A DNA stretch of 64,000 nt from an uncultured Candidatus Saccharibacteria bacterium (GCA_964593885.1 CAZQKK010000001.1:24066-88065), one strand, 5' to 3'. Shown: positions 22,201-58,777, counted from the first letter of the stretch. The notes: generated by a model not told the origin, from the sequence alone. Numbers and translations are program-made.

Positions 22201-23250
22201 ACCGGCTGTGTTGGCGATAGTTGATGCGCTATCCCAGTAGCTGAGCTGTCCAGTAACTCCTGATCCAGTAACTCCACCACCACTTGAACATGAACCCCAG
22301 GCAGGAACACCAGCGGTAATGATGAGACACTGGGTATTTGAGCCATTTGCGAGAACAGACCAGGTTCCGCCAGCAAGTACTGGGATACCCGTAGAGCCTG
22401 AGGTGTTGAGTCCGGTGCCACCGTACTGAGCCGCGATAACACTCCCCTGCCAGGACCCACTAATGACGGTGCCTAGCGTGCTATTTCCAGAAACGGTGAG
22501 GGTGGTGGCGTCAGCGGTAGCAACGTAGAGGTTGGCAAAACGGTTTCCGGTAGCACCAAGGTCAATGGTTCCTGAAGGTGTTAGGTTACCGGTAAAGCTA
22601 GTAACACCGAGCGTCTTGTTGGTGAAAGTCTCAGTTCCAGCAAGGGTAGCAAGGACACCAGTAGTTGGCAGGGTAACGCTGGTAGCACCTGTGGTAACCA
22701 GGCTCAAAGGATCAGCGCTAGTGGTAAAGCTGGCGCCAAAGCTGATGGTGGCGCTGTTTGGAATGGTGAGAGTACCCGTTGTGTCAGTAACCGTGAGGCC
22801 GCTCACCTTCTCAGCATTGATTGCCTGAGCAACAGCACCAATCTGGAGACGTGGTGTCATCTCACCGTCGCCGTTGAAGTTAATCCCTAGGTATACCCCG
22901 TCCTGGTTGAAGTTAACCGCGGAGGTGATTGGGTTTGAAGAACCAAGGTTGGTGCCAAAAATACTGTTAGTAACGGTGAGGTTCTTGGTCTCAGTCCAGA
23001 TTGGAGCTCCGCCGGTTGCAACGGTGTAGAGGCTGAAGGTAAAGGAGTACGAACCGGTAACAACCGTGGTTCCGTTGAGGTTAACAACACGTCCCTGGAA
23101 AGGAATCTGGCGATTGATACCTGAAGCAGCAAAAGCTGTAGGTGTCTGAACTACCCAAGAAAAGGCATTTGAGCATGCAAAAGCAACCACTCCGAAGAGT
23201 AGTACCCCGCCCCTGAGGAAATTTCGTGTGGCGAAGCGGTGTTGCGACAT
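7294..23250 (-). CDS. Giant secreted/surface protein A, 5318 aa. Signal peptide, repeated Cys-pair modules, about 20 BNR/Asp-box repeats forming three 6-8-bladed beta-propeller blocks, a fourth SGFGS-type propeller-like block and long Gly/Thr/Ser/Ala-rich repeats
   Basis: Single uninterrupted ORF in the track. N-terminus MSQHRFATRNFLRGGVLLFGVVAFACSNAFSWVV...AFAASG is signal-peptide-like. S-x-D-x-G-x-T-W motifs (IYTSSDYGATWTARDSSRNW) repeat roughly every 40 aa in blocks encoded at about 16250-17050, 15180-15900 and 13150-14000. A block of (S/T)xDG(T/S)(S/T)W(T/S)QVN(T/A)SGFGS repeats is encoded at about 9100-10060. A module YGGTG...ANGSNTQCL(I/V)I..GVP(A/T)WGSC recurs 3 times, and TQAAAGTYNFNLPT(A/T)AGTSGY recurs 3 times. 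Confidence 0.9.
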   Translation of the reverse strand: MSQHRFATRNFLRGGVLLFGVVAFACSNAFSWVVQTPTAFAASGINRQIPFQGRVVNLNGTTVVTGSYSFTFSLYTVATGGAPIWTETKNLTVTNSIFGTNLGSSNPITSAVNFNQDGVYLGINFNGDGEMTPRLQIGAVAQAINAEKVSGLTVTDTTGTLTIPNSATISFGASFTTSADPLSLVTTGATSVTLPTTGVLATLAGTETFTNKTLGVTSFTGNLTPSGTIDLGATGNRFANLYVATADATTLTVSGNSTLGTVISGSWQGSVIAAQYGGTGLNTSGSTGIPVLAGGTWSVLANGSNTQCLIITAGVPAWGSCSSGGGVTGSGVTGQLSYWDSASTIANTAGLNWNAGASELGIGTASTIAPLTVRKASSGIVLAVRNTADNATVLSINSTGDISGNSLTVANGLTVSAGTVSLPAGEIGNAELANSSLTVSAGTNLTGGGSVALGGSTSISVIGNPSFATSVTAPTINATTALQLGGLDVNANGTLSNVAYLAQSNAFTQPLSVTSNAGNQISNRYNASNRLDISTSSAGVTSLTAVGSLPGIVLDATATGGTIQMSTPGGSVGILANGAISLGNSGLQTLTLDVSQVNIVDGADIVGDVTNAISGFDWHGRTIGETYGGTGLSSYATGDIIYATGANTLGKRAIGSNGDCLIVSAGIPTWGSCAQASNTLQAAYGNGNTITTTDAKDFAVTLANTTTDSNFIVNIATGSTGKFAVQNNGTDVFAVTSGSTTITSGGLTVTAGTVSLPAGEIGNTELANSSLTVTAGTGLSGGGAVSLGSSTTLSLPNVGSAATYGSASQVPVFTTDAQGRVTGVSATSIALAASAITTGQLAPNRGGTGFDSSASTGVPYISAGAWSAIANGSNNQCLVISGGVPTWGSCSAGGGVTGSGSSGTLTYWDSNTTIASASGLNFAAGALAIGTATTTNGTFTVTRGTSGIAMAVRNTTDSATTFSVSDTGAIIGTSLGLGSGTITSGTINGQTISAAANLTGSLTVANGLTVTSGTVSLPNGSIDNAELANASLTVTAGTNLTGGGSVALGSSTTLNVVNNPTFTGVVTASSAGTGLSVTNDVSIGGLLGVNGIDNSGAGIVDAGTISGATIDAGTNTITGLTNANLSGTAGISNANLANSSLTVTAGTNLSGGGSVSLGGSTTLNIVNNPTFTGLITGSNTGGTALSLTGAPAASATSSLLRLGNAIVGGDAAGTFIGLNAVGGYTGNLVDLQVNGVSKLSVNKDGNIVAGTINAGNLTAGTYNGQTISSSANFTGSLTVASGFTVTAGAVSLPNGSVANAALANSSLTVTAGTGLSGGGAVALGGSVSLSLPNVGSVGTYGSATQVPVFTTDAQGRITGVTNTTIAGVDSGTLDGLDSTDFLRSTASTTFSGTNARTLTVQSSLVAGARSSALVNITQADNATYDSTASLLSITNSDDASTVAPLTVTNNSTVGGAEGIRVVGFQGTTKLSGDNLTLENGVTGLSLTVTASGITSPIDTEEYAINLMREGTSQLKVVNTEVGQVADLNLLDGSLLTNNTTRLTNGGTLQNVTYNGSTIAAQYGGTGQASYAVGDLLYASGATTLSKLTAGVNGQCLVLASGVPSWSSCATASVTLQAAYDNGNTIALTNARNLAFTLQDTATDPNFLINIATGSTGKFAVQNNGTDVFSVTSGDIVSTLDITATGFQVQTGGSCSMFTATYLNFDPSCGGGAGISGDGTDVTVSPNASGSFYVTGSGSLGLVGATSGTVSITTQAAAGTYNFNLPTAAGTSGYFLTSAGGGATAMTWTDPSTLSVSTATNLAGGAAGNIPYQTGAGATSFVGGSAGQILSSNGSSAPTFINLASTLTQGSNISITGTTNPTIAVVSNPTFSGLVTGQAGLTVTGATVNLNASSNFATNIGTGTSTGAITLGGGLNTFAVDSTAFDVSTAGVISGITGITTSGGYTQSGSGANTFSGASTFSTTGANAVAITGAPAASATSSLLQLGSAVVGGSTAGTYLGVNSGSGFTGNFADFQVNGSSKLSVDYQGNLTTAGSINFNNMQLQMLSGTPAGSGSSSSLFFGRNRVTTDGGDASISSFGQSWTQRGSAQSYWTGVATSGDGRYLTGTVYGGQIYTSSDYGVTYTARDSNRNWNDVAISADGRYQTAAGDSTQIYTSSNYGATWTARDSSRTWKQVAMSADGKYQIAGETGANKVFTSSDYGATWTDRGAQGVASATQLAVSANGSKMAVAGNPARISSDYGVTWGNAATIAGGGSYYALALSDDGKRMVSAKYFGGISISEDFGTSWTTMSIGSGSWLRVKMSSDGSRMVTGNNNRAYVSSDYGLTWSNYPIASTFSAFNFENLDISADGKRIVVAPDSSPGYIYTSVAQENTLLANLTVNAGSAFQGSLLKVQSGGQDRFTISDSGSLAVTDAFLGKTFSVTGGVTTAYGQLTVAGGFTPLSSWNPVGTVTGLSEPSVSTTGQYQAAVKNGGKIYTSSDYGATWTARDSDRGWFEVAVSGGGQYQAAVVNSGQIYTSSDYGATWTARDSSRGWQDVAISDDGQYQAATVYGGQIYTSSNYGVTWTPRDSSRNWYDIAVSSTGQYQTAVVLSGLIYTSSDYGATWVSQDSSRVWTAVAMSDSGQYQTALKISTNQIYTSSDYGDNWTARDSSWSWSDVAISGDGTLQLVSASDGNGTYYIYKSTDYGVTWVTLGLTVNKAWQAIALSGDGKYGLVATSDYLYQSVPLTPSLIVSTGGASITGLITGNTGLTITGGVASINASSNFATNINTGTSTGAVTIGGGSNTFAVDSTALDISTAGAITGVTGITTSGAYTQSGSGANTLTGVTTFSAAGTALAVTNNATIGGTLNGQTISATASLTGTLSVATSVTSPIVNVGTAGASTGALNLSGATSGTVTIQTQAAAGTYNFNLPTTAGTSGYILTSGGGGAGAMTWTNPSALGVSWSSLTAPTGNLSLNMGTNTTAFDYATGTGSNNLFSLTTANSSNGTGYLLNIATGTSSTVKPLRVSAAGTDIITVAANGATVLAGTTTVSGALSATAAGTGLSVTNNISIGGQISLAGQILQRLNGSSTSPIERLAFGRTLLGSQSVDETAENFGALWTARDSNRNWTGIASSADGKYQAATVYGGNIYTSSNFGVTWTSRDSSRNWQDVAVSADGSRQTAVVDGGQIYTSSDYGATWAPQDSNRAWHAIAVSADGKYQTAAHYGGQIYTSSDYGATWTPRDSSRIWTSMAMSADGKYQSSTVWNDKIYVSSDYGATWTPKDSNRQWNEGIAMSANGAYQTAGVQSGQIYTSSDYGATWTGRDSSRNWNDMQISDDGARQVAGEYNGTIYVSTDFGVTWASKESSRYWNHFAMSADGKYMSATVDGGQIYTSVTEKTTQYAGLAVTGALSGSAGLTVTGGTINLNVSSNFATNINTGTSTGAITLGGGLNTFAVDSTALDISTAGAITGVTGITSSGSYTQSGSGANTLTGVTTLSAAGTALSVTNNASIGGTLSVGGVPNAGYATAFASSNTADLPGIYGIAYGTAAATYGNAGLRGTGYVTTGTGYGLGVYGVSDGPRAGGTNIGAYFTASGAASNYALLTGAGNVGIGTDTPLSALVVGGAGGVNAGFEIDVSTGITTQAYNRNTLGYATYNIDGSVINLRPGGSVTAAVSSGLLAVTGSVSSTTGFLTNNNQSYKAKNFAGTGVDIAYLDTADALQLIGRAGGINLNVAGAAAPITFTINGGEAARFSSTNRNLLVGTASDDGVNKLQVAGGIATTGGYTQSGSSANTFTGATSVTSGSLTVSNTSNSALSVTSTTGRADGILSGAAGNFRMYQMQTGGSIRWGIYTSSEAESGSNAGSNFGIARYDDAGAYLADAFTINRATGLTTIAGATTLSTSVTSPIVNVGTAGASTGALNLSGATSGTVTIQTQAAAGTYNFNLPTTAGTSGYVLTSAGGAGSPMTWTDPAALSVRWNSIASPTGNQSLTMGTNTTTWNYATGTSTNNLFNLTTDASANGTGALLNIQTGASSTVLPMRIRAGAVEGLLVDASGNVGVGTIAPGAKLSISTNGTSLLSLTHDATNGVISTSTGAINLQPASGTLAINKSGVQNRLRVYGSGGSVYGELTNDNTNTILTSSSGELQLQGTGTNQFILGSVGTAMNLVFEESATISGQGGNTITVGQSGDTFNLNASGVTYNVGTLTSTGATLNTSATGTVAFTINGPAGLTANLLNLAVNSSNRLTVTTAGALSTVSSLTSTLTGANALAITGAPQASATASLVQLGSTIAGGSASGTFLGLNATGGFAGNFVDFQVSGTNFFKVTSSGATSSAATSAVFAANSATESAFQATGTPTSNAAKSLLQLGSAIASGSTGGNYLGINSGSGFTGNFLELEKNGTQVLAVTADAQFNLTGAAIATTSWTQGNTSGFGSAANTAITGAITHNDALYYATTNTSTGTQIFRSTNGTSWTQVNTSGFGSANNTTAVLGSYAGTIYAATTNSSTGAQVWSSVDGSTWTQVNASGFGSASRTTATAITVFGGAAYVSTANGETFRSFNGTTWTLAADLGGSNGSGVRSFFSAQGYLYAASAASSGGAYLQRSQNGTTWSAVGSVGFGDTNNTEFASALYFNGAYYFGTKNTTSGTKLYRSYDLSTFTQVNGSGFGSANNTTVQSMVAYNGGLYAVTGNTSTGSQVYYSADGSSYSQVNTSGFGSSSSSTSYSALAFKGNLIVSVGNASVGTQIWYAQTGTIKSTTAGLAVKSAQIGDVLIENATIKGVSELTAGTISAQTIGVKSLQVADGIAVNSSPTFVGNLAEYKANDTTVLATTISGATKLSPWSFTSVLQTTTAESAFTDITSTANAGGAYNVYKNSGALNDRTYYGFSDSSFTSILYTETSGSGGATGFEVCTELTSGVCTTWTAISGGSDGTTGLTASGTVSWTNTLTKGTVSGISAYWVRLTVSSGMSVQANGRVRISSFETSLATDAGVAFMLQAPYTASVTGWSTNGTFIGANRETAFSGNFLDFRAAGTAVFSVSASGGITVAPTSVSTTLLSVTQIASQTADTIAVGKVFVVDTTGKLASSESLPGVPTVGVDPNSGATRGDLTTSSGPLRPFAGAGLTLNITAGAAYTADHYTSGSRTTVRRCVIPSDTSIAMTASTTEYVYLIASTTDTTTGKQCTVAKNATLPTFNAQYPVLVLAKVVSGASITSVADTRFFIGSTLVYAVSTSSVEPGSIVIQNTSVDGQVDDSSSAAATGVAGITAIGNTASGIFILNTSGTAWAQAVSGAARGVCAGTSTTTGSVNNITAAVTACAGRVMTNAASATPAVLVQISPN

Positions 23251-23257
23251 CCCACTC

Positions 23258-23287
23258 AGTATAGGTGTCCAACAGGTTAGCGGTCAA
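23258..23287 (-). promoter_or_regulatory. Sigma70-like promoter of giant gene A. -35 TTGACC, 18-bp spacer, -10 TATACT, only 7 nt before the ATG, so near-leaderless
   Basis: rc of 23251-23299 reads TTATTTGACCgctaacctgttggacaccTATACTgagtgggATG. Hexamers match the consensus in 5/6 and 5/6 positions. Confidence 0.5.
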
Positions 23288-23299: not shown

Positions 23300-23327
23300 A
23301 AAAAAAGAAGCTCCTAGAGCTTCTTTT
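23300..23327 (-). terminator. Intrinsic terminator of the TPR gene. Hairpin GAAGCTC-TAG-GAGCTTC followed by a U7 run, with the stop codon in the loop
   Basis: Plus strand aaaaaaagaagctcctagagcttcttttcc. On the minus strand the stem-loop is followed by TTTTTTT. Separates the upstream operon from the giant-gene promoter. Confidence 0.7.
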
Positions 23328-23940
23328 CCAGCCTCTTGATTATCTCTGAAAGCTCATCACGTTTTGTGGCTTCCAGACCTTGTTTTGAGATATTTACCGC
23401 ATCTTGGATTTTTCCCTGGTCTTCGTAGAGAATCGCCAGGTTTGTGTAGGCAACCACGTAGCCAACATCAGACGAGATTGCTTTCCTGTAGGCTCTTTCC
23501 GCCTCCCCCAATCGCAATACCCTACTTTCATCGTCAATTGCCGCCCAATCACGGTACGAATTTCCAATCCCGTTCCAAGCAAACGCTACGTTTGTCTCAG
23601 CCTTGATCAGCTCTTGGTAGCCACTAATTGCCTCTTCGTACTTCTTGAGACGGTACTTTACGAGTGCCAATTGTGCGCGGTACTCAAGCTTTGCGTCCTT
23701 CACCAACGCCTGTTCGTACAGGGTCTCTGCACCAGTCATATCCCCAGCTCGTTGCTGCTCTGCTGCCCGTGTAGCAAGCTCAAGCGCACTGTAGCTAGGG
23801 GTAGCTTGGTTGAGCTCGCGTACCTTGCTCCAGCCACCAACGGCACTAACCACCAATAGAGCAACTCCAGCAAGCAAAATGGTGGCAAAGAAAACGAGAA
23901 AGGCAAACTTCCAAGGCGATCGACGCATGGTGAACATCAT
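23314..23940 (-). CDS. TPR-repeat protein with N-terminal TM anchor (208 aa)
   Basis: Hydrophobic N-terminus FAFLVFFATILLAGVALLVVSAV, then 3-4 TPR-like repeats (AETLYEQALVKDAKLEYRAQLALVKYRLKKYEEAISGYQELIK; AFAWNGIGNSYRD...AERAYRKAIS; AYTNLAILYEDQGKIQDAVNISKQGLE). Start is 3 nt after the stop of the FN3 gene. Confidence 0.7.
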   Translation of the reverse strand: MMFTMRRSPWKFAFLVFFATILLAGVALLVVSAVGGWSKVRELNQATPSYSALELATRAAEQQRAGDMTGAETLYEQALVKDAKLEYRAQLALVKYRLKKYEEAISGYQELIKAETNVAFAWNGIGNSYRDWAAIDDESRVLRLGEAERAYRKAISSDVGYVVAYTNLAILYEDQGKIQDAVNISKQGLEATKRDELSEIIKRLEKKL

Positions 23941-23943
23941 TTG

Positions 23944-25659
23944 TTACAGCTTACTGAGCCAGCCAAAGTTCGCCCTAATTTGGCCGAAAATGAGATCAAG
24001 GAGGGAAACAGGTTGTGCAGGGGCGAGGACCAGGTAGTCAGGTCTCTCCTCTGGGTTTGCTACGTCTTCGTTCCCCACACGGTCTTTCACCACCACCCTG
24101 AAGTGGTAGGACTGCCCAGGCTGGAGACCGGGGATTACCAGGAACTTTGCCCTACTGAACTGGGTATCGGTAAGCACCTGTTTTTCATACTCGCCACTAG
24201 CTCCCGGGCCGTAGTCAATAACCACCTTAGATGGCTCTGAGAGCTCTAGGGAGACCAGTACCTGCACCGTCTGCCTGCTACCAAGGTCAATGGTGGTATC
24301 GCTCCTAAGGCTCAGGATTTTTGGGCGCGTGCTGTCTGGTGGGGTAGTAAACTTGACGTTGCCCGAAACTGCCTGGTTTCCAAAGACATCCTTTCCAATC
24401 ACGGTGAGCGTATAGACGGTGCTACTCTCAAGCTCGGTGAGGGCGTACGTGTGATCTGTGGAGAGGAGGTCGTTTCCTCCTGATCCCTTCTTCCCAACAA
24501 ACTCTGGGTTGGGGTGTTCAACAATTTCATACCGCAAGAACTCATCGATGGCACTTGAGGATTTCCAGGTTACCTTTGCACTATCTTCGGTGATATCGCT
24601 AACGAGGAGGTCGGTGATCTGAGGAATCACAACGGTAGCAAAAACCTTCTCATCGGATTGTAAGAGGTTTCCCGCTTGGTCCACACCCGAAACCTTGAGG
24701 TAGTAGATGGTTCCACTTGCAAGGTTGGAGAGCCTCACGATGTGGTTGGTGGTGAAGGTGGCATCCTCAATTTTGGTAGTGTAGTTTGAGGTACCTGTAC
24801 CGTACTCAACCTTGGTGGTACTTGAGGTAGAGGTGTTCCACTGCACCACTGCTGAGGTGAGCGTGACGTCGGTGATGGTGAAGCCCGAGATGAAAGGCGA
24901 GTTTGGCGTTGCCAGACGTTGGGTAGCACTCACCACAGAGTTACTTGCCGCATCACGCGATTTCACCCGCCAGAGGTAAGCCTGTGAGGGAGTGAGTCCC
25001 GAAACCTTCACCTGGTGGAAGAGGGTGAGATCTTCCGCCCGTCCAACAGCGTTTTCTGTCACATCGGTGACACCATACTCAACAATGGAGCTTGCTACCT
25101 CATTTGTGGTCCAACTAATGGTGACCAAACTTGCCGAGTCAATAGAGATGAGGGGGCCGACGATGATGATTGGCGCGGTAATATCGCCTGGATCGGTGGT
25201 GAAGCTAAATTCAGAAGACTCAACCTGGTTCCCATCAACGTCGGTAGACCTCACTTTAGAGAAATACGTAGTCCCCTTGGTGAGACGGTCAATCTGGACG
25301 TTGTGAGCGGTTGAGTAGGTATCAACCTGGCCAATCTGGTTGTTGTAGTTGCCGCTGCTCGTTCCCAGGTAGACCACCGAGTTTGCCTGCTTATCGGTTG
25401 TCCAGTTAATGGTTACCTCGGTTTCGGTGATACCCGAGACGCTTGGACCAGCAGTGATGACCGGAGGGAGCGAAGCTGAGTAACTGTAGACAACACCAGT
25501 TGCGCCGAAGAAGAATGACTCAATGCTGTAGTTTCCCGATTGAATTTTGATCGGAGCATCATCAGCAGCAAGTGCTTTGGGAACAGTGGCCGTAACCCCA
25601 ACAAGCACCGCAAGAGCGATGGCAAAGAGTGTGCGAAGCTTACTCGTGGCGGATGGCAT
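23944..25659 (-). CDS. Secreted protein with about six fibronectin type III (FN3/PKD-like) domains. The ORF-track start 25716 is less likely
   Basis: Signal peptide MPSATSKLRTLFAIALAVLVGVTATVPKALA begins at the internal ATG 25659. Repeated ~95-aa beta-sandwich units carry FN3 signatures (TETEVTINWTTDKQANSVVYLG...TTYFSKVRSTD; LVTISWTTNEVASSIVEYG...YLWRVKSRD; AVVQWNTSTSSTTKVEYG...YYLKVSGVD; AKVTWKS...; YHFRVVVKD). Confidence 0.7.
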   Translation of the reverse strand: MPSATSKLRTLFAIALAVLVGVTATVPKALAADDAPIKIQSGNYSIESFFFGATGVVYSYSASLPPVITAGPSVSGITETEVTINWTTDKQANSVVYLGTSSGNYNNQIGQVDTYSTAHNVQIDRLTKGTTYFSKVRSTDVDGNQVESSEFSFTTDPGDITAPIIIVGPLISIDSASLVTISWTTNEVASSIVEYGVTDVTENAVGRAEDLTLFHQVKVSGLTPSQAYLWRVKSRDAASNSVVSATQRLATPNSPFISGFTITDVTLTSAVVQWNTSTSSTTKVEYGTGTSNYTTKIEDATFTTNHIVRLSNLASGTIYYLKVSGVDQAGNLLQSDEKVFATVVIPQITDLLVSDITEDSAKVTWKSSSAIDEFLRYEIVEHPNPEFVGKKGSGGNDLLSTDHTYALTELESSTVYTLTVIGKDVFGNQAVSGNVKFTTPPDSTRPKILSLRSDTTIDLGSRQTVQVLVSLELSEPSKVVIDYGPGASGEYEKQVLTDTQFSRAKFLVIPGLQPGQSYHFRVVVKDRVGNEDVANPEERPDYLVLAPAQPVSLLDLIFGQIRANFGWLSKL

Positions 25660-26905
25660 CAATTGGGTTAAGTTTAGCAGCTCGGTTGGCAGGGTAAATG
25701 CCGGTAAGCCCTGCAATAATCAGTGAGAAGAGGAGCGAGAAAACCGGCCAGTAGATAGGGATATTCACCCCTTGGTACACTACAGGGAAGGTGTTCTGGA
25801 AAATATCCGGGACAGTTCCCTCGGCAATCACAGCCAGCACCTGGAAGATGAATACCGTCACCTGCTGGAAGAGGTGCGCCATGATAATACCAGCAATACC
25901 TCCAAGTATCCCTATGAGGAAAGCTTCAGTGAGGAAGAGCCTCCTTACATCTCCTCGCCTAATCCCCAACGCCTTCATGATACCCACTTCTCTCGTTCGC
26001 TCAAGCAAGCTTACGGTAAGCGTATTGAACATTCCGATACTAGCGACAATGATGGCGATGCCACCCAGAATCGCCAGGGTGAGCTGGATGTAGCCAAAGA
26101 CTCGTTTAATCTCATCTACGGTATCCACTACGGTTGTCACACGGTACCCTTGAGCGATAACTGCAGCAGATGCCGCCTCAATGCCACCAACATTAGTGAC
26201 GGTAACCTTCACATTCTCGTAGTCAGGTTTCACCTCGGTGAGCAGGCTCTCCAGGTACTCGCGTGGGACGTACACGGCAGTTGCCACGTCATCAGAAACT
26301 ACCCCTCGTACCACCACGTCCTTTATCTTGGAATTCAATTTGTACTCTCGGTCTAGGCCAAGGTCAAAGGTGATGAGCGGAGTTTTGTCCTGGTCTAAGC
26401 CAAAGAGGGTAAGGAAGCTAGTAGTTACCAGCATGGCGTTGGTTTCACCATCGCCAAAAGACTTTCCTACCCGTATCTTTCCTTTATCGAGGGTAGTGAA
26501 GTAGTCAGCATCAACCCCAACAACCGTCACGTTACTGGTTTTCCCAGGGATATCCACCGATCCCTTAAGGGTAAGCTTTGGGAGCACCCTGTCTACGTTG
26601 GGGATCTGCCTGAAGGTTGCAACAGCATCAGCGTTGAGAGGTTTAATATCCTTGTTGATGCTTGATACTTCAAAAGAGAGGAGGGTGGAAGATTTGAGGA
26701 CGTTCCCCACGGTTAGCCGTTCTAACCCAAGCCCAAGTGAAATGAGGTAGACCATTGAGGCTACACCAAAGGCAATAGCACCAACGGTGAGTACTGAGCG
26801 AAGTCTGTTTCGCCTCAAACCGCTCCACGCCAGTGGAACGAGGTCAATAACCCTGACGCTTGCAACCTTACCCACGGGATTCTCCTGCTTGCATGCCCGT
26901 TGCAA
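25640..26905 (-). CDS. ABC transporter permease, FtsX/MacB/LolC family (type VII ABC). Four TM helices with a ~230-aa extracytoplasmic domain
   Basis: N-terminal TM VLTVGAIAFGVASMVYLISLGLGL, a large loop, then a C-terminal FtsX domain (IQLTLAILGGIAIIVASIGMFNTLTVSLLERTREVGIMKALGIRRGDVRRLFLTEAFLIGILGGIAGII). Overlaps the downstream FN3 gene by 20 nt. Confidence 0.8.
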   Translation of the reverse strand: MQRACKQENPVGKVASVRVIDLVPLAWSGLRRNRLRSVLTVGAIAFGVASMVYLISLGLGLERLTVGNVLKSSTLLSFEVSSINKDIKPLNADAVATFRQIPNVDRVLPKLTLKGSVDIPGKTSNVTVVGVDADYFTTLDKGKIRVGKSFGDGETNAMLVTTSFLTLFGLDQDKTPLITFDLGLDREYKLNSKIKDVVVRGVVSDDVATAVYVPREYLESLLTEVKPDYENVKVTVTNVGGIEAASAAVIAQGYRVTTVVDTVDEIKRVFGYIQLTLAILGGIAIIVASIGMFNTLTVSLLERTREVGIMKALGIRRGDVRRLFLTEAFLIGILGGIAGIIMAHLFQQVTVFIFQVLAVIAEGTVPDIFQNTFPVVYQGVNIPIYWPVFSLLFSLIIAGLTGIYPANRAAKLNPIDAIRHE

Positions 26906-27821
26906 AATCGCTCTGTGACTCAGAGGTTGGTGGGCTGGTTAAGAGGTTTCCATCGCGGATGTAGAAGACCCTGGTTGCATACGGGAGGAAGTCATTGCTG
27001 TGGGTAACAAGGATAATAGTGCGACGTTCCTGCTTGTGGAGACGTTCAAGCTCATCAATGACCATCTTCGCCGAGCGGCTATCAAGGTTTCCAGTTGGCT
27101 CATCCACCAAGAGGAGGGCTGGATCGTGCACGAGTGCGCGCGCCAAGGCCACTCGCTGCTGCTGTCCACCCGAGAGCTGGCTTGGGAGGTGGTTGGCAAA
27201 ATCAATGAGCCCAAACCTATCCAGGAGCTTCAGAGCTTCATGACGCCTCCAGTCTCTTGGAGCTCCTGCAAGCATGAGTGGAAAGGCTACGTTCTCCCAT
27301 ACGCTCAGTGAATCCAAGAGGTTGAAGCTCTGGAAAACAAGTCCCACCTCTTCTCGGTGGTAGATTGCCATCTCGTCGTCGGTGAACTGCTGGATGGTGT
27401 GGTTTCGCAGTTTGATTTCGCCCCGTGTTGGAGGTTCAAGACCCGAGAGCATGTGGAGGAGGGTAGACTTACCAGAACCAGATGGTCCGAGAATCACGAT
27501 GTACTCGCCATCCTCAACGCTAAAGCTAATGCCCTTCACTACCTCGTTGTAACTGATTCCCTGACCGTAAGCTTTGGTGAGGTTAACTGCCCGAAAAACC
27601 TCCTTGTCTGACATGGGAAGCTGGGAGGTAACCTCTGGCCCATCGGGACTTGAGGTTGGTGAAAAGGATTGGCCAAGCTCTTTCTGGATTGCCGCCACCA
27701 GGGGATCATTCTCATCAATTGCAGAAGAACCCCGCTGGTATGCGAGGGTAGCCTCAGCGCTGGTGTCTGAAGTAGTTTCTTCTTTAGGAAGCTGCAGGTT
27801 TTTCGGATCCTGTGGTGGCAT
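26868..27821 (-). CDS. ABC transporter ATP-binding protein (MacB/LolD-like) with a Ser/Thr/Pro-rich N-terminal extension. Alternative start at 27614 ([12 protein letters not shown])
   Basis: Walker [10 protein letters not shown], signature [15 protein letters not shown], Walker [14 protein letters not shown]-loop ILVTHS. The first ~70 codons are low complexity and overlap the HK gene by 38 nt. Confidence 0.85.
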
Positions 27822-29469
27822 TGGTTGACGGTGGAGTGGCTACCGCTGAAGCCTGATCCGCAGCACTGGCTGTTGTTGCTCCAACCTGGGCATGCTGATC
27901 ATCTCCCTCTTCTCCTCCCGTTGGAGGTGGATTGGGAATCTCCTTAAAGATTGGGAGTGAAAGAATAAAGGACGTGCCTTTTCCTTTCTCTGATTGTACC
28001 TCAATATCGCCTCCATGTTGACGAAGTATTGATTGAGCCACGTACATTCCAAGCCCAGAGCCGTTAGCAAACAGTTTGGAAGCCTCTTTTCCACGTGCAA
28101 AGCGGGTGAAGAGTTTTTGCCTTTCCTCGTCATCCATGCCAATTCCGGTGTCTTGGATGGTGATTTGGATCGCTCCACCAACTTCCTGCGCCTTTACCGT
28201 AACCGAACCATTCGGGGTGTACTTAATAGCGTTATCAACAAAGTTGTTAACCACCTCGTAGAAGCCTTTGGGATCAAGGTAGGAGTCTGGAAGTGGCATC
28301 GGCTCCTCGTAGGTGAGCTGGAGATTCTTGTTTTGCGCCAAGGGTTGGAGGGCAGCAACCAGGTCACGACAAACCTTTCCAAAGTTTGACATCTCCCAGT
28401 TGAGCTCCTTCCTCCCCTGCTCAATACGCGAGATATCCAAGAGGTCGTTCACCATATCAACCATGCGTTTGGTGCTCTTGAGTGACTCTTCAAGAAGCTC
28501 AAGCTGCGGCTTTGGAATGTTCATGTGAGGAGCTTCGTCCACAATCATGGAGAGTGACCAGTGGATAACCGAAAGGGGGGTGCGAAGCTGGTGTGAGGCG
28601 GTATTCAAGAAATCAGTCTTCTGTTTATCAAGCTCCTGGAGCCTTACATTGATTTCTTCCATACGCTTCTTCCCATCCAAAGCCTCTTTCTTCTGGTGGT
28701 ACTCTTGGAAGTAGAATTGCTTGAGCTTTTCAACCATCCCTTGGAACTCTCTGGAAAGCTGCTCAACCTCATCGTTGGTGGCAATAGCAGCGTAGGCGTT
28801 CAGGTTACCTGCCCTAATGGCCAGGGCAGATTCTGTGAGAGCAATAATTGGCTTAGTGAGCTTTGCCGCCAAAAAGTAGGCGGCGAGAATTCCCATAATG
28901 ATGCCAAAACAGCCAAGGTAGATGAAGAGTCTAGAGAGCCTATTAAACTCACCATCAATAACCTGCTCTTCTACCCCAAGTCTAATGGTGTAGACAATCT
29001 CGTTACTTGCCACCAGTGGGTAGGCGTAGTTGTAGAACACCTCACCATCGCGCTCAATCTTGCCTACAACGGTGTCTTTTTTACTGACAATCTGGTTGGT
29101 GAGGGTGTCGGTGTAGCTCTTGCCTTTTAGGCTCTGAGAGCTTGCAATACTGTCGTAGTAGACAACGTTATTCTTATCGATGAGCAGTACGTACCTCACC
29201 CCTTGCTGCCCCTCAACTTTCCTAATCGCGTCGGTAACCGCCTTGTTGTCACCTGTCTGGAATGTCTGGAAAACGCTCGCCGCCAGGTTGTTTACAAGGA
29301 TTTTGTAGGAGTTATCGATGGTATTCACCAACCGAGGCCTCACCGTGAGGTAGAGCGTTCCTGCAAGCAACCCAATAATCAGCGTAATGAAGAGCCCTTG
29401 GGCAAGGGCAAATCTAATTTTTACGCTGGTTCTCGGTTTCCAAACCTGATCAGAAAACGCTGTGAACAC
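27784..29469 (-). CDS. Sensor histidine kinase. TM1, ~130-aa extracytoplasmic sensor, TM2, HAMP, HisKA, HATPase_c, with a low-complexity Ala/Thr/Pro C-terminal tail
   Basis: H-box FLNTASHQLRTPLSVIHWSL. N-box and G boxes (ANGSGLGMYVAQSILRQHGGDIEVQSEKGKGTSFILSLPI). Two hydrophobic segments flank a ~130-residue domain. Confidence 0.85.
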   Translation of the reverse strand: MFTAFSDQVWKPRTSVKIRFALAQGLFITLIIGLLAGTLYLTVRPRLVNTIDNSYKILVNNLAASVFQTFQTGDNKAVTDAIRKVEGQQGVRYVLLIDKNNVVYYDSIASSQSLKGKSYTDTLTNQIVSKKDTVVGKIERDGEVFYNYAYPLVASNEIVYTIRLGVEEQVIDGEFNRLSRLFIYLGCFGIIMGILAAYFLAAKLTKPIIALTESALAIRAGNLNAYAAIATNDEVEQLSREFQGMVEKLKQFYFQEYHQKKEALDGKKRMEEINVRLQELDKQKTDFLNTASHQLRTPLSVIHWSLSMIVDEAPHMNIPKPQLELLEESLKSTKRMVDMVNDLLDISRIEQGRKELNWEMSNFGKVCRDLVAALQPLAQNKNLQLTYEEPMPLPDSYLDPKGFYEVVNNFVDNAIKYTPNGSVTVKAQEVGGAIQITIQDTGIGMDDEERQKLFTRFARGKEASKLFANGSGLGMYVAQSILRQHGGDIEVQSEKGKGTSFILSLPIFKEIPNPPPTGGEEGDDQHAQVGATTASAADQASAVATPPSTNATTGSEKPAAS

Positions 29470-29505
29470 TCCCGCTCCTTTGGGGTGCGCAGGCCGGAAG
29501 GGAGC

Positions 29506-30048
29506 CTACGGGTTATTATTTGGTTCGCCAGGGCGAAGAACCTCAGACATTGGCATAACATCCTGCATGGATGCAAAACTCTGGTAGGGATCAGCTGGAG
29601 GAGTAGCCGGAGTTGGAGCAGCAGCACTCTCACTTGGTGCAGCTGGTGCTGCAGGAGTAGCAACAAGTGGTTCAGCTGGAGCTGGTGCGGCAAAGATTGC
29701 CTTAATTTTACTGAGAATTTCTGCAGGAGAGAATGCAGCCTTCACAATGTAATCAATGGCGCCTAGTGCGTGAGCCCTTTCAACATCAGCTTTCTGAGCG
29801 AAGTTAGAGAATACGATAATCTTTGGGAGCTTACGCTTTTCCTGCTGGAGCTTTTCAAGAACATCAAATCCACTCATCTTTGGCAGAAGCACATCGAGGA
29901 GTACAAGATCAGGCAACTCAGGTTCACAGAGAAGTTTGTACGCCTCTTCGCCATCGTAGGCGTGGAGCACTTCAAACTGCTCTTCCTCAAGTTTCATGCC
30001 GATAATTTTTGCGAGCATCTGCTCGTCTTCAACAACAAGGATTTTCAT
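29506..30048 (-). CDS. Response regulator with receiver domain only (CheY-like) plus a Pro/Ala-rich disordered C-terminal tail, no DNA-binding domain. ORF-track start 30090; ATG at 30048 (MKILVVEDE) preferred
   Basis: MKILVVEDEQMLAKIIGMKLEE...DLVLLDVLLPKMSGFDVLEKL...KIIVFSNFAQ...GAIDYIVKAAFSPAEIL carries the conserved D/D/T/K receiver residues. The tail is AAPAPAEPLVATPAAPAAPSESAAAPTPATPPADP. Confidence 0.8.
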   Translation of the reverse strand: MKILVVEDEQMLAKIIGMKLEEEQFEVLHAYDGEEAYKLLCEPELPDLVLLDVLLPKMSGFDVLEKLQQEKRKLPKIIVFSNFAQKADVERAHALGAIDYIVKAAFSPAEILSKIKAIFAAPAPAEPLVATPAAPAAPSESAAAPTPATPPADPYQSFASMQDVMPMSEVLRPGEPNNNP

Positions 30049-30139
30049 AGGAAGAGAGGCTAGTGCTGATTCATAGCTATTTTGGCACATACTATCTCTC
30101 CGTTACAAGCTAACCGACACGCATGGTACACTGAGGTAT

Positions 30140-31225
30140 ATGGAATTCGCCCTCGGCCTACTGAGTGGAACCGCTATAATCCTTCTCTTGCAAGCAGGCA
30201 TCTTTAAGCGTGGAAGTGCGTCAGGCACCCCGGGTAATATGGTGAGTACCAACCCAGAAGAAGCCCTCCTCTTCGCTGAAGCCCCATTTGCGGTATGTGC
30301 CACATCGGTAACAGGAGCGATTACCTGGGGAAACGAGAAATTCTGGAAGATCTGTGGAAAACGTGAGGTGAGAAACCTGGGTGACCTCGGAAAGCTGTTT
30401 AACACAACCTTCTACCCAGTACGGAAGACTCCTAAACTCCACGCAAACCTCACAATTCCAGGTAAACAGGTTGATCAACTCCACCACTACAGCGCTCTTC
30501 GTTGGCCTACCCAGGGTGCAAAAAGGGGAAGGAGTGAAATGTTTAGCTTCCACGAGCAAACTCACCGCGAAGTACGCCACTACCAGCAGGCCTCATTTGA
30601 ACACCAGCTTGTGAGGTACCTTTCGCTTGTCGGAAGTGAGCTACGTAGTATTTCAGCAAGAGGAGGAAATGTAAGTCCGGAAAGATTAGAGGCACTGGTA
30701 CAAGAGGTTGAGAACCTCAGCTCACTGGTTTTAGAGACCCACGAGCTAACTCGTAGAACTCCTTCACAAACAACGGTTGATTTGAAGAAAATTATTGCAA
30801 CGGTTCTCTCACAACATAGGAGTGAATTTGAGGCAAAGAGTACGCACCTCATAAAAACCTTCCCACATACCTCACTGGTTCACGGAAGTGAAGTTGAGTT
30901 CCTCGTACTCTTCCAAACCATATTTGGAGCACTCCTGACCATGCTGCCAAAGCACAAATCTCTCAAAGTACAGGTTCTGCAAGATGGCAAACGTTTCCAA
31001 GTGGCAATGAGTATCCCCGACTACCAGCTCCACCCAAGCCTGGTCAATAAGCCTTTCAATTTCGCAACTGCCGAAACCGGCATCCCTACGCCCTACAGAC
31101 TCTGGAGGCTGCAACTTGCCATCGCTCACCAAATTGCCGCTAAGCACCACGGGAACCTCCAGGTTACTAGCAATGCGTTTGAAGGAACCTCTTACATCCT
31201 CACTCTAGCTGCACGAGATAGCTAG
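30140..31225 (+). CDS. Membrane-anchored PAS-domain protein with a degenerate (pseudo) histidine-kinase core. The phospho-acceptor His and the G2-box glycines are replaced
   Basis: N-terminal TM EFALGLLSGTAIILLLQAGIF. PAS-like AVCATSVTGAITWGNEKFWKICGKREV. The H-box-like SLVGSELRSISA has Ser where HELRTPL has His. The HATPase-like C-terminus RLQLAIAHQIAAKHHGNLQVTSNAFEGTSYILTLA has GLGL replaced by RLQL. Divergent from the REC gene across a 90-bp intergenic region. Confidence 0.5.
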   Translation: MEFALGLLSGTAIILLLQAGIFKRGSASGTPGNMVSTNPEEALLFAEAPFAVCATSVTGAITWGNEKFWKICGKREVRNLGDLGKLFNTTFYPVRKTPKLHANLTIPGKQVDQLHHYSALRWPTQGAKRGRSEMFSFHEQTHREVRHYQQASFEHQLVRYLSLVGSELRSISARGGNVSPERLEALVQEVENLSSLVLETHELTRRTPSQTTVDLKKIIATVLSQHRSEFEAKSTHLIKTFPHTSLVHGSEVEFLVLFQTIFGALLTMLPKHKSLKVQVLQDGKRFQVAMSIPDYQLHPSLVNKPFNFATAETGIPTPYRLWRLQLAIAHQIAAKHHGNLQVTSNAFEGTSYILTLAARDS

Positions 31226-33476
31226 CGGTAATGCCAAAGATGGGGTTGAGTATCGATGCTATCCTTCCTAGTGTAAGAATCTTCTGTGTATCGAGGCGTA
31301 GTGCTCTCTTCAGTTTAGTAGTGATGGTGAGACGTGGCACATCCTGTTTCTGTAAAGTCGTGGCCTCAGCAGCATGAGATGCATACGTTTGCAGCTTAGT
31401 CTCAAGGTAGTTTGGCGTGAAAACTAACGCGAACCCCTTGGAGAGTTGGGCATCACGTGTTGTATCGCTACTGGTGACAACCTGAGCTCCATTGCTATCA
31501 CTGCCAGCTGGGGTGACTTCCTCTAGTTTGAGAGGAATATCCTGCTTTTCACCTTTTTTCATCACAAACGTATGTATAGAATCTGTATCTAGCCAGTACC
31601 TCACCGCGGTATCCTCAAGTGCCGTTATAGCAGCGTTGTAGGTAACACCTGGTTCATCGGGAAGGAGAAACCACTGCATCTCCGGCGAAACCTCAACATC
31701 TCCTTCGCCTGCTTCGTTGCTCTCGGTGGTAGTTGCCCGGTAGCCGTTACTTCCTGTAACCGTAACATCTACCGGACAGTCTATGGAGAACAGGATCACT
31801 TTCTTGTAGGGAAGTGGGGGTTTTGGCTGCTGAAAAATTTCAGCAAGGTACTTGAGGATTACACCCGCCCCAGTACCTGGTAAGTCCTGGTGCTTCCCAC
31901 TTGCCTTGAGTACGTCTGCACCCTCAAGCGGAGAGCTCTGGATAGGCACGGTACCGTCACCTCCGTTACTGAGTGACGTAATCTCCCCCAACATTTCCCC
32001 GTCTGGCCATATGTCTTGGTCTTTCACTGGTTGTACGAGCGTCCAGGTTGGAGTGTTTTCACCCTCTGAAACTACCGTAGCAACGCTCACCCGCTTGTGA
32101 AGCTCAGGAATGCTCGCATTGAGTTTGAGCAGCCTGGTATTGGCGTAAGCCATTTCACTTGGGATAAGAAAGCTCCTCCCGCGCTTGAGAGCAGGGTACA
32201 CCGGCTGCAAATCTTGCACCGAGGAAAAGTTGCTGTGGATAACATCATGGTTCTTAGCGGGACTTTCAGGTATCCCTTTCCCATAGAGCCTCATGAGACT
32301 GCCTACAGCTGCCCAGTCTTTTGGAAGCACCCCAGCTTGCCAGAGCGGATAGGCTTTCACCGCACCCGCGTTTGGAGTACCAACCTGCACGAGGGAATGG
32401 ACATCCCCCAAGTAACCTGCACCTTGGATGTAGGCTCTGGATAAGATACCCCCGTACGAGTGTGCGACCACATTTACGTACCTACTTCCTGCCTTCCGCT
32501 TCAGCCTAGCGAGGGCTGGTAAGATGTAACTTTTGAGGATAACCTCTGCCGGTTGCCGCCAATCGTAGTAGGCAACCTCGTAGGTGGCGTGGGCATCATC
32601 TAGTGCCTTGAGAAAGTCAGTGTAGCCTGGCGTAAGCTTACCAATGAAGTGGAGGTTGTGGATAACTTCACCAGGGTTTGGTGGGTGGCTCATGGCGCCA
32701 AGGTGAATTGATGTTCCGTAGCCAGGAATGAAGAGAATGGGAAGTTCTTTCTGGAGGCAATTCTCTTTTGGAATGAGACCATACTCATGTTGGTAGACAA
32801 TGACAGTCTTTGACTCACACCCCGAGAAGGTAACGTTGTTGTAGCTAACAAACTTACTTGCACCTACTGCCTTCACAAAACCAACACCTCGTTGTTTTGC
32901 TTGGAAGTGAACACCATCAACGGTAAGAAGGTGATCAATTCCGTTAAATGTCATCCCTGTTTCCAGCATTGCAGCATCGGCGTCACGATTCTCAAACCAG
33001 ATATCTTGAAAGACGTAGTTTCGCTCATAGCGAAAACCACCCGTTCCAACGCTGATGGTGTTACGAATATTGTCCAGCATGTGGACGCCCCTGAATACCG
33101 AAGGCGGATCTGAAAACTGCAATCCTTCCGAACTTCCAGTGACCACAAGGTTGCTCACCTCAACTCCTGCTCCCGCCTCCCCAACCATCCCCTTCCACGG
33201 AGCTCCACTGGAGGCTGAGGTGAGTGTAACTGGACTACCGGGGAGTCCTGCTACCTCAAGACTCCCAAGCACCCTGAGGCGTGCACCCGCCTTGAACTTC
33301 ACCGTCACACCCGCCCGAAGCTTGAGCTTGCAGCCAACGGGCACCGTTACGGTGCTGACCACATACTCTTTACCGGGTGTACTGAGGCTTGGCACACTCT
33401 CACACCCCGCTGCACGGGTAAGCCTGGCAGGTAAACAGAGGAGCACAACGAGAATGAGTGAGGTAAGGCGGCGCAT
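31200..33476 (-). CDS. Secreted two-domain protein. N-terminal beta-helix-like region plus alpha/beta-hydrolase (lipase/esterase, GxSxG-type) domain. ORF-track start 33491
   Basis: Signal peptide MRRLTSLILVVLLCLPARLTRAAG begins at ATG 33476. Lipase-type motifs LPILFIPGYGTS (oxyanion region) and NVVAHSYGGILSRAY (nucleophile elbow AHSYG). Convergent 26-nt overlap with the pseudo-HK gene. Confidence 0.6.
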   Translation of the reverse strand: MRRLTSLILVVLLCLPARLTRAAGCESVPSLSTPGKEYVVSTVTVPVGCKLKLRAGVTVKFKAGARLRVLGSLEVAGLPGSPVTLTSASSGAPWKGMVGEAGAGVEVSNLVVTGSSEGLQFSDPPSVFRGVHMLDNIRNTISVGTGGFRYERNYVFQDIWFENRDADAAMLETGMTFNGIDHLLTVDGVHFQAKQRGVGFVKAVGASKFVSYNNVTFSGCESKTVIVYQHEYGLIPKENCLQKELPILFIPGYGTSIHLGAMSHPPNPGEVIHNLHFIGKLTPGYTDFLKALDDAHATYEVAYYDWRQPAEVILKSYILPALARLKRKAGSRYVNVVAHSYGGILSRAYIQGAGYLGDVHSLVQVGTPNAGAVKAYPLWQAGVLPKDWAAVGSLMRLYGKGIPESPAKNHDVIHSNFSSVQDLQPVYPALKRGRSFLIPSEMAYANTRLLKLNASIPELHKRVSVATVVSEGENTPTWTLVQPVKDQDIWPDGEMLGEITSLSNGGDGTVPIQSSPLEGADVLKASGKHQDLPGTGAGVILKYLAEIFQQPKPPLPYKKVILFSIDCPVDVTVTGSNGYRATTTESNEAGEGDVEVSPEMQWFLLPDEPGVTYNAAITALEDTAVRYWLDTDSIHTFVMKKGEKQDIPLKLEEVTPAGSDSNGAQVVTSSDTTRDAQLSKGFALVFTPNYLETKLQTYASHAAEATTLQKQDVPRLTITTKLKRALRLDTQKILTLGRIASILNPIFGITASYLVQLE

Positions 33477-33523
33477 ACGGTCACTATGCACCCCAACTCT
33501 TACACCTTACCCAACTAAAAGTT

Positions 33524-47476: not shown

Positions 47477-47528
47477 TAATGGCTTACCGATCGCCTGAGG
47501 TTCCTCGGGCGATCACCTAAGCTATTCC

Positions 47529-56829: not shown

Positions 56830-56876
56830 GGACAACTCTGGTTCCTTGGACGCATTCGCCCAAGACAACAAGCGGG

Positions 56877-58760: not shown

Positions 58761-58777
58761 TACTGTAATCTAGCAGA

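Follow-up and report, generated by a model that had tools for sequence, protein, structure and literature searches.

A tagged FN3 rod and its type VII ABC pair: a candidate envelope machine linked to giant surface proteins in Patescibacteria

Introduction

The window analyzed here, a stretch of 64,000 nucleotides from an uncultured Candidatus Saccharibacteria bacterium (GCA_964593885.1, CAZQKK010000001.1:24066-88065), carries on the minus strand, at positions 23314..30090, six tightly packed, co-oriented open reading frames (ORFs), as determined from ORF calls and from reading of the sequence. They encode a two-component system, an ATP-binding cassette (ABC) pair of type VII, a secreted rod of FN3 domains that ends in a short helical tag, and a TPR protein, and they are followed by two genes for giant proteins. 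ABC systems of type VII move no substrate through the cytoplasmic membrane; ATP-driven movement of their periplasmic domains acts on partner proteins or on molecules of the outer leaflet (PMC5985334, PMC7668044, PMC12646458). Here we present a set of features for the operon and for related loci, in which the deep association of the ABC pair, one that survives rearrangement of the genes, is with the C-terminal helix tag of the rod and not with the adjacent untagged giants.

Operon organization

In the direction of transcription, the minus-strand operon consists of the genes for a REC-type response regulator (29506..30090; Pfam Response_reg, 84 bits), a sensor histidine kinase (27784..29469; Pfam HAMP, HisKA and HATPase_c matches and transmembrane (TM) scan), an ABC ATPase of the type of MJ0796, LolD and the MacB nucleotide-binding domain (26868..27821; ABC_tran, 131 bits), a type VII ABC permease with four TM segments (25640..26875; Pfam MacB_PCD and FtsX, TM scan), a secreted rod of 571 aa built from FN3/Pur_ac_phosph_N repeats (23944..25659; Pfam, alignment and AlphaFold2 (AF2) model) and a membrane-anchored TPR protein (23314..23940; Pfam TPR families, TM scan). 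The tag of the rod, delimited by ortholog conservation and library matches, is encoded at 23947..24036. As read from the sequence, the successive junctions are a gap of 36 nt, overlaps of 38, 8 and 20 nt, and a gap of 3 nt; the overlap of 8 nt lies between the ATPase stop codon and the GTG start codon of the permease, and that of 20 nt, which measures 8 nt in loci L001-L008, between the permease stop codon and the ATG of the rod.

The initial annotation of this DNA had counted seven genes, where the ORF calls give six; its description of one tightly coupled, co-oriented operon with short gaps and overlaps agrees with the junctions, and its domain assignments (REC-only regulator, kinase, ABC pair, FN3 and TPR proteins) hold in Pfam and NCBIfam. 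The 63 nt that it placed between the operon and the promoter of the giant gene are the distance from the end of the TPR gene to the ATG of the 5,318-aa giant ORF.

The ABC pair

The permease consists of TM1, a periplasmic core domain of the MacB type and TM2-4 (FtsX domain), with hydrophobic segments at residues 26-44, 264-282, 317-347 and 369-387 in the TM scan. Its Pfam scores are 77 bits for FtsX (cut-off 25.5) and 52.7 bits for MacB_PCD (cut-off 27), the latter match covering profile positions 1-205 of 207. The nearest solved chains are YtrF (9o9x), Spr0695 (5xu1) and MacB (5gko, 5lil), matched mainly in the TM region, whereas the best solved relatives of the ATPase are MJ0796, PsdA, Spr0694, BceA, MacB (nucleotide-binding domain) and LolD. 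The four-TM FtsX bundle, the MacB core domain and the adjacent ATPase of the LolD/MJ0796/FtsE type are those of a type VII (MacB/FtsX-like) ABC system, so that the initial classification of the pair is confirmed by Pfam domains and gene adjacency.

None of the curated NCBIfam cut-offs for FtsX, LolC/E or MacB is reached by the permease. For FtsEX, the scores were 34.9 (FtsX_Gpos), 31.3 (FtsX_actino) and 26.3 bits (FtsX_Gneg) against cut-offs of 225-255, the ectodomain is MacB_PCD, and Pfam detects no LytM, CHAP, NlpC or coiled-coil match in the operon proteins that would indicate a partner of the FtsEX type. Clear orthology to FtsEX had been named in the initial annotation as an observation that would count against its proposal; by curated scores and by type of ectodomain, the pair is not FtsEX. 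LolCDE was rejected with 77 bits for lolCE against a cut-off of 362 and 36-47 bits for the LolE and LolC exception models against 439-540, and MacAB-TolC, Spr0693-5 and YknXYZ were rejected because no HlyD or membrane-fusion adaptor domain occurs in the operon proteins or in the related loci shown. A Bce-type module was rejected for the operon (permease with four TM segments, kinase with a 137-aa ectodomain, regulator without Trans_reg_C) and also for a second cassette in the window, described below, the permease of which has four TM segments.

The FN3 rod and its C-terminal tag

The rod comprises a signal peptide, an N-terminal hairpin (SxNYxIESxxFGxTG), five FN3 domains of the Pur_ac_phosph_N type and the tag. 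The AF2 model has a predicted local distance difference test (pLDDT) value of 82 and contains a signal helix, a hairpin of low confidence, FN3 domains at residues 65-545 and a terminal helix at 553-568. Orthologs form a family of about 55 clusters with 43-97% identity, all of 537-598 aa, beyond which scores fall from 413 to 209 bits. Two elements outside the FN3 domains are conserved in their alignment, namely the N-terminal hairpin and the extreme C-terminal segment, YLVLAPxQPVSLLDLIFGQIxxNFGWLxxL.

This segment is the tag, which in the rod of the window reads YLVLAPAQPVSLLDLIFGQIRANFGWLSKL and forms an amphipathic helix at the very C-terminus. It is kept in all rod orthologs and also in the distant relatives L014-L018 and L020; its widespread form is …(F/Y)T(I/L)LTPxxxxS(V/I)xQ(V/I)IxxNFExTFG(W/F)(V/L)KK…. 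The maximum 19-mer Kyte-Doolittle mean of the helix is 0.66, too polar for a TM segment, with a hydrophobic moment of 0.27-0.44. A tag placed after an FN3 array matches the stalk arrangement common among adhesins that are held at their C-terminus. A tripartite sorting signal such as LPXTG or PEP-CTERM was considered and rejected: the tag does have an LTP motif and a basic tail, but its helix lacks the character of a TM segment. Neither sortase nor exosortase was matched among the window proteins scanned, and no Pfam or NCBIfam model covers the tag. In a literature search, the coverage of which was incomplete so that a prior description is possible, neither the tag nor its link to a MacB-type ABC pair was found described.

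A profile of the tag (last FN3 domain plus helix) was compared with 1.84 billion representatives, and the best 149 matches were examined. Depending on whether a strict or a looser pattern was applied, 42 to 57 of these 149 carry the tag in their last residues. The tagged library proteins measure 962-6,321 aa (median about 2,350), and a net positive tail follows the helix in 49 of 57. Taxa named among the tag-bearing sequences are Berkelbacteria, Magasanikbacteria and, as fragments, Saccharimonadales. The Saccharimonadales fragment P0084 terminates in a tag-like helix, and the gene of the Magasanikbacteria protein P0056 begins at a contig end. In six loci (L059, L061, L062, L072, L073 and L095) a TGA directly follows the tag and the frame is open beyond it; these organisms may read TGA as glycine (code 25), under which the tag is not strictly terminal there.

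Linkage of the tag and the ABC pair

Scans of species genomes with the single FN3 protein as query gave no match, whereas an alignment query gave five loci. The metagenome scan was made with an alignment of the widespread tag type (A5) and yielded 79 loci, in which tagged ORFs were called anchored on the tblastn matches; redundancy was collapsed by identical tail string, a crude procedure, and 42 loci had at least 2.5 kb of downstream sequence. An ABC ATPase lies within 1.5 kb downstream on the same strand in 27 of the 42, and is then followed by a permease of the MacB type in 25 of 27. In three further loci (L037, L077 and L090) the ABC pair is found elsewhere in the locus.

The same linkage is seen from the side of the permease. 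All five sampled distant permease relatives (34-38% identity; L014-L018) directly follow a protein that ends in FN3 repeats and the tag, in loci that have no two-component system, TPR gene or separate giant. Four of these five tagged proteins are large (1,458 to more than 2,900 aa) and carry NHL or Kelch propellers. In locus L020 a tagged protein of 538 aa (P0094; 25% identity, weak FN3 match) stands between an untagged giant of 4,394 aa and an ATPase-permease pair, an order that differs from that of the window. A terminal tag after FN3 domains, with an adjacent ATPase and MacB_PCD permease, is what we propose as the definition of an FGW-tagged family; the window, the loci of its clade, L014-L018, L020 and the 27 metagenome loci belong to it. 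Because tag and ABC pair are linked across distant loci, the tag is most likely what the pair acts on, through docking or extraction, and the pair would not export the neighboring giants.

Two side observations concern these clusters. A gene for alanyl-tRNA synthetase stands beside the tag and ABC genes in L014 (172..1908) and L043 (14405..16276) and may be a remnant of an ancestral neighborhood. The tag-linked ATPases of L020 (8705..10033), L043 (10491..11834) and L054 (4542..5882) have a C-terminal extension of about 200 aa (442-447 aa in total) and no N-terminal one.

Synteny in the clade of the window

The operon block recurs in at least 10 independent contigs, with identities of 45-66% for the FN3 protein, and is thus not a product of chance. 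As derived by tblastn of the window proteins together with gene calls, the order in this clade (Berkelbacteria-type) is LCAT/PGAP1-like hydrolase, REC regulator, kinase, ATPase, permease, FN3 protein, TPR protein; it is kept in L001, L002/3, L004/5, L006/7, L008 and L009-L012 as far as the contigs reach. Conservation of the gene neighborhood, which the initial annotation had offered as a check of its proposal, was found: a giant with a conserved N-terminal module stands after the block in every related locus with sufficient flanking sequence. In L006, L008, L009 and L010 the TPR gene is separated from the giant by one to six additional genes. Pfam was uninformative for the 148-aa gene inserted in L006 and for the six inserted genes of L009; one inserted gene of the L009/L010 set has Big_6 and Dockerin matches, and in L020 a Big_6/Dockerin gene (15601..) follows the ABC cluster.

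The hydrolase gene (31200..33491, minus strand) encodes a secreted alpha/beta-hydrolase of the LCAT/PGAP1 type, identified by weak Pfam PGAP1 and Palm_thioest matches in the window and by LCAT matches in orthologs, with an AHSYGG nucleophile motif and a long N-terminal region without assignment. In most related loci it stands immediately before the REC gene, which it overlaps in L004. In the window, in L001 and in L010, and not in the other related loci, the two genes are split by an ORF of 361 aa on the opposite strand (30140..31225, plus strand in the window), which lies 49-91 nt from the REC start; this ORF has no Pfam match in the window, and its copy in L001 has a weak HATPase_c match. 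PDB sequence searches with the LCAT-like protein and with the 361-aa ORF gave nothing useful. The hydrolase was found in clade loci only and is absent near tag and ABC genes outside the clade; its membership in the system is uncertain.

The two-component system

The kinase has TM1 at residues 25-43, an extracytoplasmic domain of about 137 aa, TM2 at 181-199, HAMP, HisKA (56.9 bits) and HATPase_c (99 bits) domains and a low-complexity tail; the H-box region reads SHQLRTP. Its orthologs show a faint sCache_3_2 match in the ectodomain, and its best NCBIfam match, WalK, is well under the cut-off of that model. The likely true start of the response regulator is M15 (30048). Numbered from there, D8, D52, S81 and K103 of the receiver are conserved, the last three being invariant in 34 orthologs. 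H-box and HATPase domain of the kinase, together with acidic pocket, phospho-acceptor aspartate, serine/threonine and lysine of the receiver, are those of a two-component phosphorelay.

The Pfam scan finds no output or DNA-binding domain in the regulator, the only domain of which is REC. Ortholog alignments show instead, after an Ala/Pro-rich linker that is highly variable in length and composition, an invariant C-terminal peptide of about 28 aa, Y..F.SMQDVMPMSEVLRPGEPNNNP, with the consensus Y..F.S(M/L)(Q/E)(D/E)V(M/T)PMSEVL(R/H)PGE(P/S)NNN(P/S) in all orthologs; the tail is covered by about 100 ortholog clusters. AF2 models the REC domain with pLDDT values above 90 and the tail, at 50-60, as disordered, with no docking onto the REC domain at this low confidence. 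Because the modeled tail is disordered and undocked, it appears to be a short linear motif that another protein would recognize.

The ATPase carries an N-terminal extension of about 75 aa, otherwise variable, with a conserved motif DP(L/M)VxAI(Q/E)(K/R)E(L/I)G at residues 39-50. This motif is kept in orthologs that have the two-component system, and the whole extension is missing from distant relatives without one and from the second cassette of the window. The lack of a DNA-binding domain, the invariant tail peptide and the clade-specific motif of the ATPase suggest that regulation is probably post-translational, and, as the regulator has no output domain, transcription of the giant genes is probably not under direct control of sensing. 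We infer that the phosphorylated regulator may act on the ATPase, for which the N-terminal extension is the best candidate target.

The TPR protein and accessory genes

The TPR protein has a single N-terminal TM helix (residues 13-31); because this is preceded by RR/K, an outward orientation of the TPR domain is predicted. The gene is present in all clade loci. Outside the clade, TM-TPR proteins of 211-217 aa adjoin tag and ABC genes in other orders (L037, L043, L054 and L093), and receiver-only regulators of 129-132 aa likewise occur beside them in other orders, in one locus with a kinase of 321 aa. The order in L043 is tagged protein (2,958 aa), ATPase, permease, TM-TPR protein, alanyl-tRNA synthetase, kinase, REC regulator, and that in L054 is tagged protein, ATPase, permease, REC regulator, TM-TPR protein; in L037 and L093 the TM-TPR gene stands straight after the tagged gene, and in L042 a REC gene lies between the tagged gene and the ATPase. 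Since TPR and REC genes are not general among tag/ABC loci, the core of the system is the tag with the ABC pair, to which the TPR protein and the phosphorelay are recurrent additions that have become fixed in the clade of the window.

The giant proteins

Giant protein 1 (7294..23250, minus strand; 5,318 aa; ORF, BNR_6 match and composition) has a signal peptide of the Sec type, an N-terminal module of about 110 aa, BNR/Asp-box repeats with 14 SxDxGxxW motifs, and a composition rich in T, G, S and A. Composition, TM scan and motif searches reveal no C-terminal TM segment, LPXTG motif or tag and thus no recognizable anchor. Giant protein 2 (1..7290, minus strand), which starts 3 nt past the stop codon of giant 1 and has an N-terminal TM anchor, is at least 2,430 aa long, its frame being open to the left edge of the window.

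The N-terminal module (window 22800..23130, residues ~40-150 of giant 1; …PFQGRVVNLNGTxVxxGxYxFTFSLYxxxTGGxPxWTE…) has no Pfam match. The first ~150 aa of the downstream giants of L001-L009 match giant 1 at 36-66% identity, and the remainder is very different (LVIVD, Kelch, PGDYG or BNR); in L008 the module is internal, at residues 171-271. The giants of the clade have non-FN3 domains in common with the tagged giants of other lineages: giant 1 is 50% identical to P0388 over ~200 aa, and giant 2 is 34% identical to P0300 over 316 aa. The connection of the system with giants is real but indirect, in that the giant itself bears the tag elsewhere, while tagged rod and untagged giants are separate genes here. 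The link between the ABC pair and giant surface proteins that had been drawn initially extends, for this ABC subfamily, well beyond the clade of the window.

The 63-nt spacer before giant 1 contains, on the minus strand, a terminator-like hairpin followed by T7 (23300..23327; sequence and folding) and a promoter-like site, TTGACC-18-TATACT (23258..23287; motif match). The hairpin, GAAGCTC-TAG-GAGCTTC, encloses the TPR stop codon and folds with -28.2 kcal/mol (z -3.3), beating all shuffles; its conservation was checked in other loci, and it is not obviously kept. The promoter-like site is the top match of its region (10/12), where the number of matches equals the shuffled expectation; L001 carries a comparable TTGCCC…TATACT. 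Because hairpin, T7 and promoter-like match lie in the spacer, the operon and giant 1 are probably separate transcription units in the window.

Other genes in the window

A second cassette (56953..61323, minus strand) encodes an ATPase, a 618-aa permease with four TM segments, a regulator of the OmpR type with a DNA-binding domain and a BaeS-like kinase, in a gene order that differs from that of the operon. Its permease is 25% identical to that of the operon, in the TM part only, and the ectodomain of ~430 aa has no MacB_PCD, Pfam or NCBIfam match. Close paralogy was rejected in view of this identity and of the other ectodomain, regulator and order; the cassette, taken in the initial annotation for a paralog that reuses the architecture, is a distant relative within the same superfamily. 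It is followed by an ORF of 440 aa (55549..56871) without family match.

The region 46880..49231 (plus strand) encodes a Peptidase_M73 (camelysin/TasA-like) protein and, after it, two co-oriented ORFs of 235 and 332 aa that have no family match, which may be a cluster for a TasA-like fiber or secreted proteins. The regions 37503..39778 (minus strand) and 49760..52551 (plus strand) hold a YmdB-RNase Y pair, NrdD with its activase, class I aldolase, dihydroorotate dehydrogenase and SmpB, a housekeeping set consistent with a small anaerobic Patescibacteria genome.

Comparison with known systems

With FtsEX-EnvC/PcsB/RipC, LolCDE-LolA, MacAB-TolC and YbbAP-TesA, the pair has in common the four-TM FtsX permease with a core domain between TM1 and TM2, the separate LolD/MJ0796-like ATPase and the adjacent gene for an extracytoplasmic partner; action at the outer face, by mechanotransmission or extraction and not by transport across the membrane, is likewise to be expected. 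The partner differs: it is an FN3 array with an amphipathic helix, often part of a giant elsewhere, and not a coiled-coil activator, LolA, membrane-fusion protein or thioesterase, and the host is a monoderm-like ultra-small bacterium. The tag resembles the signals of LPXTG/sortase, PEP-CTERM/exosortase, GlyGly-CTERM/rhombosortase and the C-terminal domain of the type IX secretion system in being a short C-terminal signature (LTP, helix of ~18 aa, basic tail) placed after a stalk, on many carriers that are often very large and sometimes in tandem, with the machinery gene beside some of them and not all. Unlike those of the sorting systems, however, its helix is amphipathic and not a TM segment, the linked machine is an ATP-driven ABC pair and not a transpeptidase or protease, and there is no sign of cleavage or covalent attachment.

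BceAB-BceRS shows the same coupling of ABC, kinase and regulator genes, and probably a functional coupling as well, but the permease of the window has four and not 10 TM segments, its kinase a 137-aa ectodomain in place of an intramembrane sensor and its regulator a conserved peptide in place of an OmpR domain. Giant genes are found beside secretion systems in Omnitrophota (bioRxiv 10.1101/2023.11.21.568195). As in these loci and in those of RTX adhesins such as LapA (LapBCE-LapG-LapD), giant repetitive proteins adjoin an ABC machine with a possible signaling input to display or release. In contrast to the type I secretion system of LapA-type loci, the ABC pair here is of type VII, the giants have Sec signal peptides, the presumed retention element is a C-terminal helix, and no protease or c-di-GMP receptor was seen in the system of the window.

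Proposed mechanism and alternative explanations

On balance, we consider it probable, from the gene content and its linkage, that the operon represents an envelope machine specific to Patescibacteria, in which a type VII ABC mechanotransducer and a Sec-exported, tagged rod of five FN3 domains serve giant surface proteins. The MacB-like ABC pair would work on the basic-tailed amphipathic FGW tag in one of two modes: the tag may dock on or in the permease, so that ATP-driven movement is passed to the FN3 rod, or it may rest in the outer leaflet, from which the permease would extract it or hand it on. The translational coupling of permease and rod genes favors a stoichiometric complex of the two in the clade of the window, and the tandem tagged giants without an ABC pair of their own favor a relation of client and machine elsewhere. 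In most related lineages, where the tag ends the FN3 stalk of a large or giant adhesin-like protein, the system would hold or handle the giants themselves at the membrane. In the split arrangement of the window's clade, the 571-aa rod would be the stalk and anchor to which the untagged giants attach, perhaps via its N-terminal hairpin, via the N-terminal module of the giants or via the outward TPR domain; as the adjacent genes encode untagged giants that lack their own anchor, the rod together with the TPR protein is the most likely membrane-proximal base for them. The ectodomain of the kinase would sense the outside and the kinase phosphorylate the regulator, which would then act post-translationally, the extension of the ATPase being its best candidate target. 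Physical docking or extraction, the role of the TPR protein, the link to the untagged giants and the target of the regulator are the inferred parts of this scheme. Export of the giants across the membrane by the ABC pair, one of the roles proposed in the initial annotation, is unlikely, because a Sec-type signal peptide is present on giant 1 itself and the outer face is where type VII ABC systems act (PMC5985334, PMC12646458). Of the sensing and scaffold module tied to giants that the annotation envisaged, the genomic tie stands and export gives way to docking or extraction at the outer face, the most likely object of the ABC pair being the tagged rod.

Several observations weigh against this proposal. 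No ABC pair occurs within 10 kb in 13-15 of the 42 tagged metagenome loci, which weakens a strict one-to-one partnership. These loci belong mostly to one subgroup with tandem tagged giants, of which the members L055 and L056 do have the pair; such tandem giants without an ABC pair of their own would be expected if one machine served several tagged proteins. The AF2 confidence of the tag helix is modest (pLDDT about 63), and the co-occurrence of ATPase extension and two-component system is confined to one clade. Among the 29 loci with at least 5 kb downstream, TPR genes occur in 2, REC genes in 4 and two-component genes in 1-4. Further such points concern the giants. Since the whole neighborhood of ~20 kb is syntenic in the clade (AI-2E transporter, SmpB, nucleotidyltransferase, LCAT-like hydrolase), adjacency of the giants within it is weak evidence alone; six co-oriented genes intervene between block and giant in L009 (4612..10134) and L010 (12558..18067); and the hairpin and the promoter-like site stand between operon and giant 1. 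It is accordingly conceivable, and in our estimate somewhat unlikely, that the module serves its own tagged rod only and that the untagged giants are neighbors by descent, an explanation that accounts for this synteny, for the one to six unrelated genes inserted before the giant in four loci, for the separate terminator and promoter-like signals, and for L015, where a short tagged protein and an ABC pair have no giant nearby. It fits less well with L020, where an untagged giant, a small tagged protein and the ABC pair are neighbors in an order unlike that of the window, and with the fusion of the tag elsewhere to giants that share domain types with those of the window, giant 1 of which is anchorless.

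The remaining explanations concern the ABC pair itself. Peptide-resistance modules typically combine two-component and ABC genes. This likeness, together with the nearest solved permeases (YtrF, Spr0695 and MacB), which belong to efflux or stress-type systems and also weigh against our proposal, would suit a pump like MacB, YknYZ or Spr0694-5, with the FN3 protein as an adaptor in place of the membrane-fusion protein and a two-component system that senses a toxic compound; in distant loci, the FN3 gene indeed occupies the usual membrane-fusion gene position upstream of ATPase and permease. We regard such a pump as improbable: there is no HlyD or membrane-fusion domain, the supposed adaptor reaches 6,321 aa and carries adhesin-like propellers, tagged giants are found in tandem with no ABC pair, the regulator is unable to bind DNA, and the ectodomain of the kinase is unlike that of Bce sensors. 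Slightly less credible still is lipid handling of the YbbAP-TesA kind, in which the ABC pair would extract lipids or other hydrophobic molecules for the LCAT/PGAP1-like hydrolase, with rod and TPR protein as scaffolds, and so help in scavenging host lipids. A complex of a type VII ABC system with a lipid hydrolase has precedent (PMC12646458), and in the clade the gene of the secreted hydrolase lies directly before the module, overlapping that of the REC regulator in L004; but it is absent from tag/ABC loci outside the clade, while the tag-ABC link is deep, and an opposite-strand gene separates it from the module in the window, L001 and L010. A divisome module of the FtsEX type that activates a cell-wall hydrolase can be given hardly any weight, since the resemblance lies in the FtsX-domain permease and an FtsE-like ATPase (189 bits with the FtsE model) that scores equally high on DarD, LolD and MacB models, whereas the FtsX models reach 26-35 bits against 225-255, the ectodomain is MacB_PCD and a coiled-coil, LytM or CHAP partner is lacking.

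Implications

The envelope machine proposed above admits a bolder form, which we put forward tentatively and at less than even odds: the FGW helix may be the recognition signal of a new sorting or anchoring pathway of Patescibacteria, in which the ABC pair captures the tag of Sec-exported FN3-stalk proteins, many of them giant adhesins, and uses ATP to retain, deploy or release these carriers at the cell surface, and in which the phosphorelay of the Berkelbacteria-type clade is a switch that acts on the ATPase via peptide motifs. The apparent sole output of the regulator, a short invariant peptide, suggests direct control of an ABC ATPase by phosphorylation. With this machine, the type VII ABC family would gain a fifth class of partner besides hydrolase activators, LolA, efflux ducts and lipid hydrolases. 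Ultra-small Patescibacteria are believed to spend their lives attached to other cells, and giant surface proteins take up much of their genomes; the tag with its adjacent ABC pair is a concrete candidate machine for the retention, display or release of these proteins, searchable by regular expression or profile of the tag. If true, the bolder form would amount to an equivalent of sortase/LPXTG in function, with mechanotransmission as its basis, and would provide a handle on epibiotic attachment to the host.

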